From an uncultured delta proteobacterium (GTDB lineage: Bacteria; Desulfobacterota; Binatia; UBA9968), in contig CAVTUQ010000007.1 of the NCBI GenBank assembly GCA_963737905.1, positions 64,001 to 128,000 on the forward strand: DNA of 64,000 nucleotides, read 5' to 3'. A model generated the notes under the pieces. It made no database searches. It worked only from the letters and a program-made list of their open reading frames with translations, and was not told the DNA's origin. The translations under genes were made by a program, and so were the position numbers. This document shows, piece after piece, positions 21,380 through 62,987 of the stretch (within the stretch, counting starts at the first letter, position 1; the number at the start of each line of letters is the position of its first letter).

Positions 21380-22660
21380 GTGCACAAGGAAATTATCATC
21401 GTTGGGATGAATCATCGGAGCGCGCCGATCGAAGTAAGAGAAAGCGTGGCCTTCGAGACTTCCTACGTCCGTGAGGCTTTGGGACGGCTGCGGGCCTACC
21501 CGTCGATCCAGGAGAGTGTCATTCTATCGACGTGTAACCGTGTGGAGGTGGTGGTGGCGGCGTTGAATGGTGAGTCTGCTTCTGTGGAAATCAAAGCATT
21601 CTTGGCCGACCAGAGAGCGCGGAAAAATCGCCATAGTCTAGAGGACCACGTTTATATTCACCAGGGTCCGGCAGCGGTTCGGCATCTGTTCCGTGTGGCT
21701 GCGAGTCTGGATTCCATGGTTGTAGGGGAGCCGCAGATCTTGGGTCAGCTAAAGGAATACTATAACGCTGCTCAGGCCGCCGGCACCGTCGGAACGATTC
21801 TTCATCGTCTTTTTCATCGCTCATTCTCCGTTGCCAAGAGAGTCCGGAACGAGACGGCTATCGCGAGTCGCGCGGTATCCGTCAGTTCCGTGGCCATCGA
21901 CCTGGCAAAAAGGATCTTTGACCGTCTTGACGACAAAACGGTGATGCTCATCGGAGCGGGCAAGATGGGTGATCTTATGGCTCGACACCTCCAACGCGGC
22001 GGCGTGCACAGCGTGATGGTCACCAACCGAACCTTCGACCGAGCCGTGGAACTCGCCGGCCGGATTCATGGCAGCCCGATTTTGTTCGAGGATTTTCCCC
22101 GTTATCTCACACTCGCCGATCTCGTTATCGGTTGCACCGGTTCTCCCGAGATCCTGGTAGACGTCGCGACGGTGGAAAAGGTTCTTCGCGAACGCAAACA
22201 AAAGGCGATGTTCTTGATTGACATCGGCGACCGCAGAAATTTCGATCCCGCGATTAACGCAATCGACAATGTGTATCTCTACAATATCGATGATCTCAAA
22301 GGCGTCGCCGAGGAGAATCTTCACGAAAGGTCCAACGAGGCCGAAAAAGCGGAGGGAATCGTTCAAGAGGAGGTCCAGAATTTCACGCGCTGGATCGATT
22401 CTTTGGAGCAAGTCCCGACGATTACGGCTCTCCGGCAACGGTTGGAAGAGATACGACAGCGGGAGCTCGAAAGATCGCTGGGCGGCAGCCTGAGAGACCT
22501 CTCGGAAAAACAGAGGGAGGCCTTGGAAGACATGACCACGGCGATGATGAACAAGATTCTTCACGCTCCTCTATCGCAGCTAAAGCTCAACTCCCAAGAC
22601 GACGACGAGAAAACTCTCTACATTGCCGCGCTGAAGAAACTCTTTGACTTGGAGCGGTGA
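21380..22660 (+). CDS. hemA: Glutamyl-tRNA reductase
   Basis: LSTCNRVE, HLFRVAASLDSMVVGEPQILGQ, IGAGKM. Confidence 0.97.
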   Translation: MHKEIIIVGMNHRSAPIEVRESVAFETSYVREALGRLRAYPSIQESVILSTCNRVEVVVAALNGESASVEIKAFLADQRARKNRHSLEDHVYIHQGPAAVRHLFRVAASLDSMVVGEPQILGQLKEYYNAAQAAGTVGTILHRLFHRSFSVAKRVRNETAIASRAVSVSSVAIDLAKRIFDRLDDKTVMLIGAGKMGDLMARHLQRGGVHSVMVTNRTFDRAVELAGRIHGSPILFEDFPRYLTLADLVIGCTGSPEILVDVATVEKVLRERKQKAMFLIDIGDRRNFDPAINAIDNVYLYNIDDLKGVAEENLHERSNEAEKAEGIVQEEVQNFTRWIDSLEQVPTITALRQRLEEIRQRELERSLGGSLRDLSEKQREALEDMTTAMMNKILHAPLSQLKLNSQDDDEKTLYIAALKKLFDLER

Positions 22661-22896
22661 GCCTAGATAATGCGGACGCGAGCATTCTTCACGGAAGAAC
22701 GACCGAGGAGCAAGCCTCTCCGGTCGCGGGCAATGGCCTGTGTCTTGAGGAGGCCTGCAAACTGCAGTGACGGAGCGTAAAGTGAGGCAGAAATGCGAGC
22801 TTATAGCCAAGCTCCCTAGAAATCATTGCGGCTCCATGTCCCAGTGCCCGCTCGCTACGATGCTTCCTCCTCGGTCCATGAATAGTCCGGGCCTAG
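22659..22896 (+). mobile_element. Non-coding hairpin element, family copy A
   Basis: Colinear with the reverse complement of 61660-61911; right end CATGAATAGTCCGGG-C-CTAG; arms GACCGAGGAGCAAGC / GCTTCCTCCTCGGTC. Left end degenerate. Confidence 0.78.
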
Positions 22897-48664: not shown

Positions 48665-48865
48665 GATTGCAATAATGCCTTAGATCGGATCGCTTGGCTA
48701 GTCGTGCAAATAGAGTGGGTGGCTCCCTGTGTACCGTTAGTTAAAGACTACCACGATGCTATTCCCGATCGAGCTCGATCCGCTCAGTGTTGCCGGTCCC
48801 GGTCTAGAGCCGCTGAAGCGGCCTTAGAGTGGAAAATGAACAGCATTGGTTCTAAAGATAAGTAT

Positions 48866-49050
48866 TAGACAATTGCGGTTCCTAAGAAACCGAGGGTCAA
48901 GCTCGTCCAAGCGCGGGCAATGGGTCTGTGCCTTGTCGGCCACCACCCGATCCATCCCAGAGGTGGTTATTCCAACGGCTCGGGCCTGAACGCTTGCTTT
49001 AGGTTCGGTGCCCGCGCTTCCACGACTCGTCCCTTCGTTTCTTATGTCTA
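48866..49050 (+). mobile_element. Non-coding hairpin element, family copy C (variant termini)
   Basis: TAGACA...TGTCTA ends; arms TAAGAAAC/GTTTCTTA and AAGCGCGGGCA/TGCCCGCGCTT; 5' arm closely matches copy A. Confidence 0.65.
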
Positions 49051-49113
49051 TTAACCAATGAACTCCTTGGTAAGTGCACGAGCCCCTTTGTGGCTCGCGC
49101 AAAGAGATTGCGT

Positions 49114-61240: not shown

Positions 61241-61349
61241 GGCAACCCTCCCCGTGCGTGATTTGTTGGCGCCGATCATACTCAATTTGCCGCAAAACAT
61301 ACAACAGAACCTTCCCATTAAACCGAGCTTTGTTTGGGCCGAAAAAAAC

Positions 61350-61642
61350 CATTCGTGCAAAGAGCGCGGGTAACGGCCGCGATCACCCCGGGTGTGGTTT
61401 GCTGCCAGCACGGCTGGTGGCAAGATTGTAAGGACCTCGACCTGCCGGGCTACGATTCTTACGGTAAGGGCTCAGCCAATCCCAGCCTGTTGATCGGCGC
61501 CGATGTGGCCGATCCGATCAGCGGCTCATTGCCGCATCGATCCTATCTTTGCCGCGTGCGGCCGGCCGCGGAGCAATCGCCAAAGAAGTCTGCCAGCCCG
61601 CATTCACCCGGCGACATCGACATGATTCAAAAATCTCCCTGA
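61350..61642 (+). pseudogene. C-terminal fragment of a molybdopterin oxidoreductase (dinucleotide-binding domain)
   Basis: RARVTAAITPGVVCCQHGWW...ANPSLLI...DPISGSLPHRSYLCRV with no upstream catalytic domain. Confidence 0.72.
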
Positions 61643-61659
61643 TTGCCGCGACGGGGGAC

Positions 61660-61911
61660 CTAGCCCGGACTATTCATGCTCCCAGGAAAACCCACGACAC
61701 AGTGTCGATCAAGGGGCGAGCTTGGAGGAGCGAAGGCACAGAGGCGAACAGTTCCAATGACGATTAGGGTGTTTGGCCTTGCGCTCGAATTTTTTCCCAG
61801 GTATTCGCTTCAGAACTTAGGTTTGCAGGCCGCCTCCAGGTAGAGGCCCATTGCCTTCGCTCCTGAGAGCTCGCCCTTGATCATTGTTCGCCAGCGAATA
61901 GTCCGGGCTAG
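61660..61911 (-). mobile_element. MITE-like non-coding hairpin element, family copy B (intact ends)
   Basis: CTAG-CCCGGACTATTC ... GAATAGTCCGGG-CTAG; internal arms GATCAAGGGGCGAGCT..AGGAGCGAAGGCA / TGCCTTCGCTCCT..AGCTCGCCCTTGATC. Confidence 0.85.
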
Positions 61912-62987
61912 CGCAGCGCTGGAAGGATTTCCTTGCCCCAGAGATCGATCACCTCGGGAATATCGGGGCCGAGGGGAACGCCGATCGCAACCTGCGTGAA
62001 TCCATCGCGGGCCGCCAGCGAGAATAGTTCCGCGATCCGCTCGCTGCACTGCGCCGCTGTGCCGGCGATGATCAGACGATCGACGGCTTCGTCAGGCGTG
62101 AGAGAGGCGGCGTGGTCGACGCCGCGATTTTCCGCGTACGCTTGGCGCACCATTTGAATCGCCCGCGGGTCGATGCCTTTGGCCTCGAGAACCTCGTCCG
62201 GCCAGCCGGAGACGATATGGGAGACGAAACGTTTCGCGTGCTGTCTGGCGGCCTCGCCGTCGCGCGAAACCGAGGCGTTGAGCAGCATCACTTTGCGCAA
62301 CGGCTCTCGCAGCGGGGATTGCGACCGCGCGGAGTGAAGACGCGCAAGCGAGGCGCTCATGTCGGCAATCCCATAGAGAGTTTGGAGAATCACGCCGTCG
62401 AAGTGGCGCGCGATAAGGTCGAGCACGGCGGGCTTGAGCAGACTCGGACCATAGTAAAGACGGATGGGCGACTGGGTTTTGAAGCGCAGCGCGTATTGTT
62501 CCGCGTTCAAATGAAAATAGGAAGCCAGAATAGGAATATCGGCGCTTCGGAGCGCCTCGCCGGCGAACAGTTTCCGCAATCCCATGGCCAATTCGGCCAT
62601 GATGGCGAGCGGTTTCGCGCGTTCGACTTGATGCGTCAGGATCGACCTCGATCCAGGCCCCAGGCCGAGGGAGATTTCTCTCCCGTTGGTGAGCTCGGAT
62701 ATCGTCGCGAAGGCCATCGCTAGATCCACCGGGTTACGAAAGTAGGGAACCGTGACGGCGGTTCCGAGCTTGACCGGCAAGCGTGCCACGATCGCCGCCG
62801 AGCTTGCTAGCACGCTTCGATATTCCAGATTGTCGTTGGTCCAAACCTGGCTGAAACCGAGTTTCCTCAACGTCTGCCACGCCTGCTCGGCCAGCCCGAT
62901 CAAATCCGGGAGCGAGTAACGATTGAGAACGTGAAGCGGATAGTGTATCCCGATTTCTCCGGTAAATTCTTTTGCTTGGATGGCCAT
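61908..62987 (-). CDS. LLM-class (Mer-like) oxidoreductase
   Basis: GFSQVWTND, LGTAVTVPYFRNPV, ISLGLGPG, IAGTAAQC; the stop TAG lies within the CTAG of the element. Confidence 0.85.
   Translation of the reverse strand: MAIQAKEFTGEIGIHYPLHVLNRYSLPDLIGLAEQAWQTLRKLGFSQVWTNDNLEYRSVLASSAAIVARLPVKLGTAVTVPYFRNPVDLAMAFATISELTNGREISLGLGPGSRSILTHQVERAKPLAIMAELAMGLRKLFAGEALRSADIPILASYFHLNAEQYALRFKTQSPIRLYYGPSLLKPAVLDLIARHFDGVILQTLYGIADMSASLARLHSARSQSPLREPLRKVMLLNASVSRDGEAARQHAKRFVSHIVSGWPDEVLEAKGIDPRAIQMVRQAYAENRGVDHAASLTPDEAVDRLIIAGTAAQCSERIAELFSLAARDGFTQVAIGVPLGPDIPEVIDLWGKEILPALR

Follow-up and report, generated by a model that had tools for sequence, protein, structure and literature searches.

Positions 61660-61911 of the window (the whole stretch of DNA that was analysed, 64,000 nucleotides) are very probably occupied by a MITE of IS1380 type, a hairpin-forming element bounded by TIRs and duplicated CTAG tetranucleotides, in whose interior lies a core that recurs in MITE families with quite different ends. 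Taking all the evidence together, the explanation we judge best, and hold to be likely, is an IS1380-type MITE served by a trans-acting DDE enzyme and carrying a constrained hairpin cargo. The earlier note on this DNA had proposed the element as a candidate for an undescribed system, which overstates the case, since the vehicle is an ordinary, already known kind of element and only the shared, strand-specific core is left unexplained.

The Element and Its Relatives in the Window

The features of the element, and of two further loci in the window, are as follows.

61660-61663, no strand: left target-site duplication CTAG
61664-61675, plus strand: left TIR CCCGGACTATTC (family consensus CCCGGATTATTCAT); the same TIR bounds IS1380-family elements of genomes G001, G046 and G076
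61676-61706, plus strand: 5' spacer with an A-run and a small palindrome, CGACACAGTGTCG (61695-61707)
61705-61884, plus strand: conserved hairpin core (cargo), common to at least three MITE families, delimited with covariance model R1
61707-61738, plus strand: 5' side of the basal stem, made up of P1, a purine-rich internal loop (UGGAGGA) and P2, from fold and pair counts
61739-61851, plus strand: apical domain with the conserved segment ...AGGTAGAGGCCCAT
61852-61882, plus strand: 3' side of the basal stem, with P2', then ..GGAG.. as internal loop, then P1', from fold and pair counts
61896-61907, minus strand: right TIR GAATAGTCCGGG, from inverted-repeat detection
61908-61911, no strand: right target-site duplication CTAG
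22679-22896, minus strand: second copy of the same CTAG MITE family, a short form that lacks the 5' spacer; core at 22699-22878
48858-49068, minus strand: member of a second MITE family ("family 2", TIR ..AAGGAGTTCATTGGTTAATAGACA) carrying the homologous core; core at 48886-49042

The description of a 244-bp hairpin element with 12-bp TIRs and flanking CTAG held up. The body (61664-61907) has perfect TIRs and a CTAG on either side, so that the two ends form a 16-nt inverted repeat that is 100% complementary, CTAGCCCGGACTATTC (61660-61675) and GAATAGTCCGGGCTAG (61896-61911). Internal arms were found by repeat detection at 61714-61738 and 61852-61876 (25 nt, 88% match), and the minimum-free-energy fold pairs 61707-61738 with 61852-61882 at -110.9 kcal/mol (z -6.06; 0 of 200 shuffled sequences were as stable). 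The body contains no transposase gene, and its sole ORF, of 55 aa (61676-61843), shows frame-shifting gaps in the family alignment which, judged by eye, argue against its conservation. As had been proposed, the right CTAG supplies a stop codon: bases 61908-61910 are the minus-strand TAG of a luciferase-like monooxygenase ORF (61908-62987; 359 aa; Pfam Bac_luciferase, E 5.6e-30).

A conserved core common to three loci of the window was confirmed with the covariance model, which scored 158.5 bits on the plus strand of the element itself and, on the minus strand, 122.4 bits at the second copy and 87 bits at the family-2 locus. The second copy retains one intact TIR, GAATAGTCCGGG (22880-22891), followed by a C and then CTAG (22893-22896), while its opposite end is degenerate. 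It had been thought to begin at a stop codon, as the element at 61660 does at its other end, yet the duplication does not supply that stop: the upstream ORF stops with TGA at 22658-22660, and the CTAG close by (22663-22666) falls beyond what can still be recognised of the degenerate end. The locus at 48866-49050, taken earlier for a partial relative, does carry a homologous core, but is a different element, belonging to a MITE family with other termini, to one copy of which it is 80% identical over query positions 2-216.

Copy Number, Mobility and Target Site

A search with nhmmer returned 52 matches in the 6.7-Mb genome, 24 of them near full length and most flanked by CTAG, which is far beyond chance; of 41 related genomes compared by BLAST, 17 (this genome counted) carry the CTAG MITE family. 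The proposed mobile family with further TIR-bounded copies thus exists, with a TIR consensus of CCCGGATTATTCA across the 64 copies examined. The earlier note would have abandoned mobility had further copies or empty sites been lacking; further copies and unoccupied sites were both found. Unoccupied orthologous sites were recovered by comparison with G001, where loci that carry a copy correspond in this genome to a single CTAA, CTGA, CTAG or CTAC. For the window copy itself no clean empty site was found: the monooxygenase ortholog of G001 ends in TGA with no MITE, and the DNA downstream of it is non-syntenic, which makes it an unoccupied locus, not a precise empty site. Nor was a joint across the element (the empty-site form) seen in one DNA sequencing run. 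In G002, copies at three loci are 99.2-100% identical and have different flanks. In this genome, whose assembly is 87% complete, the closest copies agree at 92%; here the family is probably in a quiescent state, although a congener has seen recent activity. A size below about 600 bp without a transposase gene, TIRs, a target duplication, dispersed polymorphic copies and a matching autonomous partner were all found, and these are the characters by which a MITE is recognised.

In 53 aligned copies from nine genomes, CTAG flanks both ends of 22 and one end of 17, and four lie between identical tetranucleotides other than CTAG. These last bear on the enzyme involved. In the IS630 family CTAG is the preferred target and TA the duplication, and the duplication made by IS5 is YTAR; the element could accordingly be an IS630/Tc1-type MITE duplicating only TA, or one of IS5 type, and CTAG flanks alone cannot separate such models from a 4-bp duplication. 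The outer bases, however, also match where the flanks depart from CTAG (ATAG/ATAG, CTAA/CTAA, TTAG/TTAG and CCAG/CCAG in the four copies mentioned, and CTAT/CTAT), which indicates that 4 bp are duplicated, and these TIRs are absent from all 14 PF01609 and all 5 PF13358 matches of this genome, whereas PF13701 elements have them. A transposase of either other type is, on this evidence, very improbable.

CTAG is the rarest tetranucleotide of the genome (7,367 sites; observed/expected 0.74), and 5,069 of its sites (~69%) are located in coding sequence, from which surviving copies are essentially absent. Copies lie 0-40 bp from gene ends, and in seven of 40 the duplicated TAG is the stop codon of the neighbouring gene. 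With respect to flanking ORFs, the same 40 copies are sense co-directional in 10 cases, antisense in 13, between convergent genes in 11 and between divergent genes in 6, counts which rest on crude ORF calls; orientation is random, and convergent gene pairs are frequent. CTAG contains TAG, so that an insertion at a C-TAG stop would rebuild the stop codon; copies come to sit on stop codons for this reason, and survivors accumulate between genes and at their ends. The suggestion that the element lands harmlessly at gene ends consequently needs qualification: the position is real, but a stop is supplied in only 7 of 40 copies and most genomic CTAG sites are coding and hold essentially no survivors, so that the pattern reflects target choice together with survivorship.

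A Probable IS1380-Type Partner Transposase

Full elements of 1.6-1.67 kb with an identical TIR and CTAG duplication were found in G001, G046 and G076. The first measures 1596 bp (contig C870; CTAG, CCCGGATTATTCAT...ATGAATAATGCGGG, CTAG) and has a broken transposase, and those of G076 (C10, 1657 bp) and G046 (C3, 1667 bp) have the matching TIR and duplication; G046 contains five PF13701 matches. The 445-aa ORFs of the latter two elements (loci L054 and L053) match PF13701 with E values of 5.1e-139 and 9.3e-141. The MITE has in common with these IS the TIR of about 15 bp, CCCGGATTATTCATG, and the 4-bp CTAG duplication, and nothing beyond; it differs from an IS1380 element in this respect and in its lack of a transposase.

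In this genome no intact cognate transposase was found: TIR pairs 100-8000 bp apart were only MITE-sized, the surroundings of 17 transposase matches, scanned for TIRs, held no such ends, and the sole PF13701 gene (C15:30290-31657) is truncated, with a TIR that is related but different. PF13701 occurs in 24 of 90 genomes of the family and in none of the MITE-rich G015, G023, G010 and G014. Metagenome assemblies often lose IS copies. Judging from the identical TIRs and duplications in other genomes, the MITE ends would derive from an IS1380-family element, and the MITE would be moved in trans by its DDE transposase (Pfam DDE_Tnp_1_4). This enzyme would bind both TIRs and insert the MITE into CTAG by cuts staggered by 4 nt, the repair of which would duplicate the tetranucleotide. 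A non-autonomous CTAG family mobilised by a DDE enzyme, as first proposed, is thereby retained, with an IS1380-family (PF13701) transposase in place of the IS5-type one that had been implied.

TIRs of the IS1380 family start with CC. The TIR and CTAG duplication shared with the PF13701 elements connect the MITE to this family (IS1380, IS1247, ISEcp1), which the size, TIR length and 4-5-bp duplication of the partner elements also fit; Table 2 of PMC3281130 gives IS1247 as 1672 bp, with IR 16/13 and DR 5. A strict CTAG target for IS1380 members was not found in the literature searched. The piggyBac superfamily, a eukaryotic relative of IS1380, for its part uses the palindromic 4-bp target TTAA, which is duplicated, and its TIRs begin with CCC. 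The present family resembles it, with a CTAG target and a TIR beginning CCCGG, but the tetranucleotide is different and the element is bacterial. In PMC10813416, IS1380 transposases are placed as the outgroup of piggyBac.

A Core Common to MITE Families with Different Ends

The core, for which the covariance model R1 was built in this analysis, measures 160-180 nt, and besides the CTAG family at least two MITE families with different ends carry it. It is found with a TIR CCCGGATTCCGCAGTT and a 5-bp duplication, for which the partner is a 1546-bp element of a second IS1380 lineage (L068, flanked by ttaag on both sides), and also with a TIR ..AAGGAGTTCAT... In G008 the core forms tandem copies without evident TIRs. 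The 5' spacer (61676-61706) is restricted to the CTAG family and missing from the two other core-bearing families, and the apical part is family-specific except for its first small hairpin and a 3' single-stranded motif. Helix sequences vary between families, whereas loop sequences are conserved. The distribution of the core is narrow: it was detected in 8 of 8 genomes of one bacterial family and 1 of 2 of a neighbouring family, against none among 140 genomes sampled from 17 further families of that class.

No core was found by the covariance model within 30 IS loci, the sole match (L073) being about 900 bp from the transposase. When 90 genomes were scanned with the TIR pattern for a partner of family 2, the only pairs obtained were spaced by about 200 bp. 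A "TA, IS630-like" duplication considered for this family was set aside as weak, the flanks themselves being conserved, and a candidate longer family-3 element (C1:27343) proved to be a truncated copy.

Strand Asymmetry and Probable Selection on the Core

The stems of the core covary, which bears out the earlier view of a structurally constrained cargo. In a cross-family alignment of 40 sequences, 93.5% of cells pair, compared with 80.3% after shuffling; in 19 of the 22 pairs both partners change, a result matched by 0 of 500 shuffles, and slid controls pair at 31-47%. These copies are related and the covariation figures ignore phylogeny, so that cell counts are not independent events. The structure is also strongly directional, with a consensus energy from RNAalifold of -31.6 kcal/mol on the model strand and -6.4 on the reverse, and covariance scores on the core of 158.5 bits (plus) and 37 bits (minus). 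G-U pairs outnumber A-C pairs by 68:8 overall and by 29:4, 22:4 and 17:0 in the separate families; the structure was predicted on the favoured strand, which introduces some bias into these counts, limited by the contiguity of the helices.

At the level of single copies the signal is much fainter. Singleton variants per column amount to 0.54 in the basal stem, 0.66 in the apical part, 0.74 in the spacers and 1.00 in the TIRs, and among low-frequency pairs we count 27 G-U and 27 A-C. Private variants being thus only mildly rarer in the basal stem, and rare pairs balanced, individual copies decay almost neutrally. We lean, with some reserve, towards selection on the core as a strand-specific structure. 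It would act mainly on source elements, through the spread or tolerance of MITE lineages and not at each inserted copy, and the module would work as a single-stranded nucleic acid of the model strand, most likely RNA.

A simpler account is that this is an ordinary MITE whose hairpin is filler, the likeness between families stemming from ancestry or recombination and the arms being kept by hairpin-templated repair or gene conversion. Many bacterial MITEs fold into long hairpins, and near-neutral decay, random orientation, the lack of a promoter and the lack of an Rfam match all suit it. One such hairpin is described in PMC11578231. A DNA palindrome, however, predicts equal G-T and A-C mismatches per strand, where 68:8 was observed with all three families alike; helices that vary around conserved loops are the pattern of a recognised structure; and the core sits in the shells of two IS1380 lineages and of a third TIR type, besides its tandem, apparently TIR-less arrangement in G008. 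We therefore regard filler as unlikely.

A host-exapted cis-acting RNA, serving as terminator, mRNA 3'-end stabiliser or processing site in the manner proposed for Correia, ERIC or REP sequences and of benefit to each locus once transcribed together with the preceding gene, is in our estimate somewhat less probable still. It would agree with the position of copies close to gene ends and between convergent genes, with the slightly fewer private variants of the basal stem, and with terminator-like features on both strands within the element: a small hairpin followed by T6 in the apical domain (61767-61786) and, on the minus strand of the 5' spacer, a weak hairpin with a T-run. In family 2, moreover, a T-run directly follows the basal helix. 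In families 1 and 3, however, such a T-run is not conserved, copies show no preferred orientation relative to the upstream gene (read from upstream, 21 copies present the model strand and 24 the reverse), and the near-neutral decay of copies argues against selection locus by locus.

The core is structured, strand-specific, transposon-borne and of roughly the right size for a guide-RNA scaffold of an RNA-guided nuclease or recombinase, comparable to the TnpB/IscB omega-RNA or the IS110 bridge RNA, in which a spacer or the flank would provide a variable guide. Against this, its elements have the TIRs and target duplications of DDE-type transposons, Rfam holds several transposon-associated RNA families and none of them matched, no hypervariable guide-like segment was seen by eye within subfamilies, and no nuclease gene is linked to the copies examined. 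No guide role, which had been raised earlier without support, has emerged, and we consider it extremely unlikely. That the cargo corresponds to no described RNA family was likewise borne out: Rfam gave no match in the whole window at gathering thresholds and none in 61600-61980 at E values up to 10, and in five family-2 and family-3 loci only sR33 (E 9.4).

Preferring an IS1380-type MITE with a constrained cargo, we may ask what the cargo is. It is possible, though we would not presume it, that the core represents a new class of module, either structured RNA or strand-specific ssDNA, which is itself the selected unit and is carried by MITE shells belonging to two or more IS1380 lineages and to a third TIR type. 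As part of this tentative reading, the core might persist by aiding the propagation or tolerance of its elements and be more than a by-product of the MITE. Recruitment or regulation of a host or transposon protein through the purine-rich internal loop, which is conserved, is a candidate role.

Expression and Candidate Functions

No sigma-70-like promoter was found in or beside the element. In two metatranscriptome runs, contigs touch MITE sequence of other copies (with other flanks beside CTAG and TIR), for which DNA carry-over is a possible source. Several specific functions were considered and rejected. A GG-N10-GC motif of sigma-54 type (TGGCTCGGCGCTCGCA) occurs in the apical part of many copies but is not conserved, the window subfamily reading ..TCGAA, and a second motif, GGCAC...TTGC, has by eye a spacing of 12 nt where 10 nt is required. 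A CsrA-titrating RNA was suggested by GGA motifs in the loops; no CsrA (PF02599) was found in the 87%-complete genome. A K-turn in the internal loop fits, by eye, family 2 only.

Comparison with Other Hairpin Elements

The element shares with hairpin MITEs, among which we take Correia/CREE, ERIC/IRU, RUP, BOX, Nezha and Chunjie to belong, a small size, TIRs, a target duplication, multiple copies, an intergenic position near gene ends and a long stem-loop. It differs from them in its IS1380-type partner, in a module common to MITEs with different TIRs and duplication lengths, and in strand-specific covariation. REPINs and REP sequences, mobilised by RAYT, are likewise lineage-specific, multi-copy intergenic hairpins of conserved structure, but they have neither TIRs nor target duplications and are moved as ssDNA by an HUH enzyme, whereas TIRs, 4-5-bp duplications and DDE partners are present here. 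MITEPye1 is described with the features of hairpin MITEs in PMC11578231. Neither an IS1380-derived MITE nor an internal module shared among MITE families with different ends was found in the literature searched.

Significance

With this family, MITEs are linked to transposases of IS1380 type whose target is strictly CTAG, a connection of which we found no prior description in the literature searched. The family also accounts for a recurring repeat that is bound to cause confusion in the annotation of metagenome-assembled genomes labelled Candidatus Binatia or "Deltaproteobacteria". The interiors of MITEs are usually regarded as junk; the core described here looks selected, and hence offers a tractable case for the study of non-coding cargo in a DNA transposon.

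Anatomy of the window element

The element at 61660-61911 (CTAG-CCCGGACTATTC...GAATAGTCCGGG-CTAG) was described in the earlier note as a 244-bp hairpin bounded by terminal inverted repeats (TIRs) and CTAG at a stop codon, and this is confirmed by its complementary arms and by the adjoining luciferase-like frame, which ends at the TAG of the right CTAG.

Features of the element and its neighbours
61334-61642, plus: 102-aa ORF; C-terminal molybdopterin dinucleotide-binding domain matched weakly, at E 5.7e-05, under the Pfam cut-off
61660-61675 / 61896-61911: outer 16-nt arms, 100% complementary in the repeat search
61714-61738 / 61852-61876: internal 25-nt arms, 88% in the repeat search
61908-62987, minus: luciferase-like ORF, 359 aa (Pfam Bac_luciferase, E 5.6e-30)

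Folded as RNA, the 244-nt body reaches -110.9 kcal/mol on the plus strand (z -6.06; 0/200 shuffles equally stable) and -106 kcal/mol on the minus strand (z -5.31). Rfam matched neither the whole window at gathering scores nor 61600-61980 at E up to 10, in agreement with the earlier description of the cargo as unrecognised. The 102-aa frame, which ends 18 nt ahead of the MITE, looks like a gene remnant; a TctC-family gene also lies to the left, and past the 3' end of the monooxygenase gene there is no synteny with the congener G001.

Repeat family, target duplication and mobility

BLAST of the element against its own genome (G000; 6.7 Mb, 46 contigs) returned 36 matches, which three rounds of nhmmer took from 36 to 44 to 52. 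Most of the 24 near-full-length nhmmer matches (188-263 bp), when like-oriented, read CTAG-CCCGGAYTATTCATG...GTGAATAATCCGGG-CTAG, and the ends are the same in 40 more copies taken from eight related genomes. Two G000 copies that are identical including their flanks (C25:358514-358755 and C46:7809-8050) most likely lie on overlapping assembly contigs, and hence represent one insertion.

Flanks in the 53-sequence alignment of family copies (A1)
Both flanks CTAG: 22
Both flanks the same 4-mer other than CTAG (ATAG, CTAA, TTAG, CCAG): 4
One flank CTAG: 17
Flanks degenerate or shifted by one base: 10

Since the outer bases of the flanking 4-mer co-vary, the duplication comprises 4 bp and not just the central TA, which rules out IS630-style insertion at TA. 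The earlier note proposed to look for empty sites. Mapping the flanks of MITE copies from the congeners G001 and G002 onto the own genome located orthologous unoccupied sites for four G001 loci, each with one tetranucleotide where the sister has a MITE between duplicates.

Unoccupied sites in the own genome
Filled G001:C396: C8:220820, AACTAA
Filled G001:C234 (CTAA...CTAA): C13:876-882, CTGA
Filled G001:C21: C11, ~76750, single CTAG
Filled G001:C167: C43:66350, CTAC

G002 has three copies, at different loci, with 99.2-100% identity, and in G023 at least 8 copies share 93-97%; the closest pairs in the own genome are 92% identical, so that the family looks quiescent there. BLAST detected it in 17/41 genomes, own genome counted (15/24 in the same taxonomic family, 1/5 in a second, 0/11 in a third). 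With one genome taken per species, an exact-pattern scan gave 46 loci. MAGs carrying the label Candidatus Binatia, 'Deltaproteobacteria bacterium' or 'Thermodesulfobacteriota bacterium' account for nearly all of them; a binning effect may explain two contigs labelled Udaeobacter and one labelled Elusimicrobia. The vehicle is a MITE by every criterion tested, and the mobile-element reading was right in kind.

CTAG is the rarest tetranucleotide of the genome (7,367 sites, observed/expected 0.74). By crude ORF calls, 5,069 sites are coding, 422 coincide with stop codons and 1,834 lie elsewhere between genes. Among 40 copies longer than 150 bp, the duplicated TAG is the neighbour's stop in 7, and nearly all the others are intergenic with an ORF end 0-40 bp away. 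The proposal that the element lands harmlessly at gene ends is therefore only partly supported: the pattern combines a TAG-containing target with loss of copies that landed in genes.

Probable IS1380-family partners

No long element with the MITE's TIRs was found in the own genome, and none of its PF01609 (14) or PF13358 (5) matches is flanked by them. Its sole IS1380-family gene (C15:30290-31657, truncated; PF13701, E 5e-135) lies in an element starting CTAG-CCTGAATTTTTCAC. Relatives of full length occur in G002 (1738 bp) and G033 (1742 bp), and their ends read CTAG-CCCGnATTTCTCAC...GTGAGAAATnCGGG-CTAG. A profile scan matched PF13701 in 24/90 genomes of the taxonomic family, and the 30 loci that it returned were scanned for TIRs and duplications.

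Elements with the TIR and CTAG duplication of the MITE
G001:C870, 1596 bp: CTAG, CCCGGATTATTCAT ... ATGAATAATGCGGG, CTAG; TIR the MITE's own, transposase broken
G076:C10, 1657 bp: TIR and duplication as in the MITE
G046:C3, 1667 bp: TIR and duplication as in the MITE

In the G046 and G076 elements, 445-aa ORFs match PF13701 (E 5e-139 and 9e-141), with 80% identity between them; five PF13701 matches are listed for G046. Another IS1380 subgroup (TIR TCCTCAAATAAGCG, ~1.86 kb) duplicates CTAG too. Judged from these sequences, the MITE is tied to putative IS1380-family partners, and an IS5-type partner is not borne out; transposase-bearing elements with these TIRs, for which the earlier note proposed to search, exist in G001 (broken) and in G046 and G076 (intact), and none was found in the own genome. 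As IS and MITE are similar over the first ~15 bp only, with nothing above chance beyond by blastn-short and nothing by nhmmer, the MITE interior is not an IS deletion derivative.

The target TTAA of piggyBac elements, and their TIRs beginning CCC, parallel the CTAG and CCCGG of the MITE. Full-text searches of articles found no literature on transposable elements in Binatota or on MITEs with common interiors under different TIRs, and no IS1380-derived MITE. IS1247 is entered in Table 2 of PMC3281130 with 1672 bp, IR 16/13 and DR 5, and in PMC10813416 IS1380 serves as piggyBac outgroup.

At C15:30290-31760 (locus L031), the IS1380-family gene is cut off after ~440 codons and runs directly into tRNA 3'-end-like sequence (..GGTTCAAATCCCTCCGGGCGCGCCA), where ARAGORN found no whole tRNA; an integrated element may end there, or the assembly may have been joined at that point. 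In both intact IS1380-type elements, another frame of 530-531 codons stays open (L054:1376-2971, plus; L053:1323-2915, minus), which begins at an ATG within the TIR and, in a different phase, overlaps the entire transposase gene. Identity of this frame between the elements is 52%, versus 80% for the transposase; it has no Pfam match and is probably non-coding, even if unusually long for staying open by chance. A DDE (PF01609) element of 1471 bp at G000:C21:20699-22169 has 17-bp TIRs starting with CTAG (CTAGTACTACTGTGTCA).

A structured core in different shells

The sequences in A1 split into two subfamilies, between which the long internal stem has changed in pairs (GATCAAGGGGCGAGC/GCTCGCCCCTTGATC to GACCGAGGAGTGAGCC/GGCTTACTCCTCGGTC; CGAAGGCA/TGCCTTCG to CGCGGGCA/TGCCCGCG). 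For A1, RNAalifold predicts 32 pairs, 17 with double changes. About 10 nhmmer matches were limited to model positions ~33-223; several are degenerate copies of the window element's family (family 1), and seven of the partial matches hold the 160-180-nt hairpin core between other ends.

Other shells of the core
Family 2: TIR ..AAGGAGTTCATTGGTTAGTAGACA; includes the window's third copy, 48858-49068
Family 3: TIR CCCGGATTCCGCAGTT; 5-bp duplications TTGAA, TTCAA, TTAAA, ATAAA, CTGAA, TTCAT, ATTAT

Family 3 has its TIR in common with a second IS1380 lineage (1546 bp; examples L068, ttaag-CCCGGATTCCGCAGTA...CACTGCGGATTCCGGG-ttaag, and L061). A TIR pattern scan of 90 genomes found no partner for family 2. 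By BLAST, family 2 occurs in 17/41 genomes and family 3 in 8/41.

Across the three families, 40 sequences (15, 13 and 12) were aligned; unpublished genomes were left out, and G012, G006 and G068 are the basis of no claim. In the basal structure, two helices with 22 pairs in all flank a purine-rich internal loop. The structure is 93.5% paired versus 80.3% in shuffled alignments and 31-47% in slid controls, with both-sided changes in 19/22 pairs (130 cells) and some pairs of three Watson-Crick types (e.g. CG 15, GC 11, UA 11); 0/500 shuffles reached any of the five measures used. Unpaired motifs that are conserved include UGGAG in the 5' strand of the loop, YGGAR(G) in its 3' strand, and ..AAGGCACAGGCCCAU.. 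ahead of the 3' arm. One strand is clearly preferred by the structure: the RNAalifold energy is -31.6 kcal/mol on the model strand versus -6.4 on the reverse (-38.6 versus -24.3 for A1, where the model strand is more stable in 38/53 copies), G-U:A-C is 68:8 overall (29:4, 22:4 and 17:0 by family), and the covariance model scores the window copy at 158.5 bits on the plus versus 37 on the minus strand.

This model (R1; 180 positions, 22 pairs) was run on 151 genomes across the class, with at most 17 candidates scored per genome. It matched 8/8 genomes of the window's taxonomic family, own genome not counted and some BLAST-negative ones included, and 1/2 of a neighbouring family; 0/8 genomes of the order's third family and 0/132 of 16 other families matched. 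A fourth shell type is probable in G054. G008 has two tandem pairs of cores with no evident TIRs, a context other than a MITE shell, and no core lies inside the 30 IS loci. The G008 cores (L248:1501-1880, that is C45:18317-18689, and C25:45680-46051) stand head to tail, ~20 nt apart.

A second small palindromic repeat of G000, rich in GTTCAA/TTGAAC (e.g. GTTCAAGGTTCAATGTTCCAGGTTCAACG...TTTGAACATTGAAC; C7:379105-379205, outside the window), stands in place of the usual interior in three MITE copies (C10:27652-27872, C9:111793-112017, C29:72025-72212) and also occurs at a site holding a MITE in G001. The 5-bp target of family 3 (TTSAA) has many occurrences in it, and GTTCAAC and GTTGAAC presumably fit integron attC R''/R' boxes.

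Possible role of the core

A host function exerted locus by locus is argued against by random orientation to flanking ORFs (n=40: (-,-) 13, (+,-) 11, (+,+) 10, (-,+) 6), by only mild depletion of private variants (0.54-0.58 per column in the core versus 0.66-1.00 elsewhere), and by rare G-U and A-C being about equal (27 versus 27, hand count from the A1 pair table). That no sigma-70-like promoter was found in or beside the window element counts against an autonomous RNA gene; terminator-like hairpins with T-runs (61767-61786, plus; 61707-61695, minus) are not conserved across families. A sigma-54-like -24/-12 motif (TGGCTCGGCGCTCGCA, GG-N10-GC), followed by a T6 run, occupies the apical part of about half of the aligned copies (window 61773-61795; A1 columns ~164-181), and reads TCGAA in the window's own subfamily.

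Covariation of the helices from lineage to lineage, conserved loops, preference for one strand and decay of inserted copies are best fitted by selection acting on the core through source elements, rather than through each inserted copy. What is left of the 'undescribed system' of the earlier note is an element of a known kind whose cargo is unusual and apparently under selection, a hairpin which, in the form of RNA or of a single DNA strand, would help MITE lineages to spread or to be tolerated.
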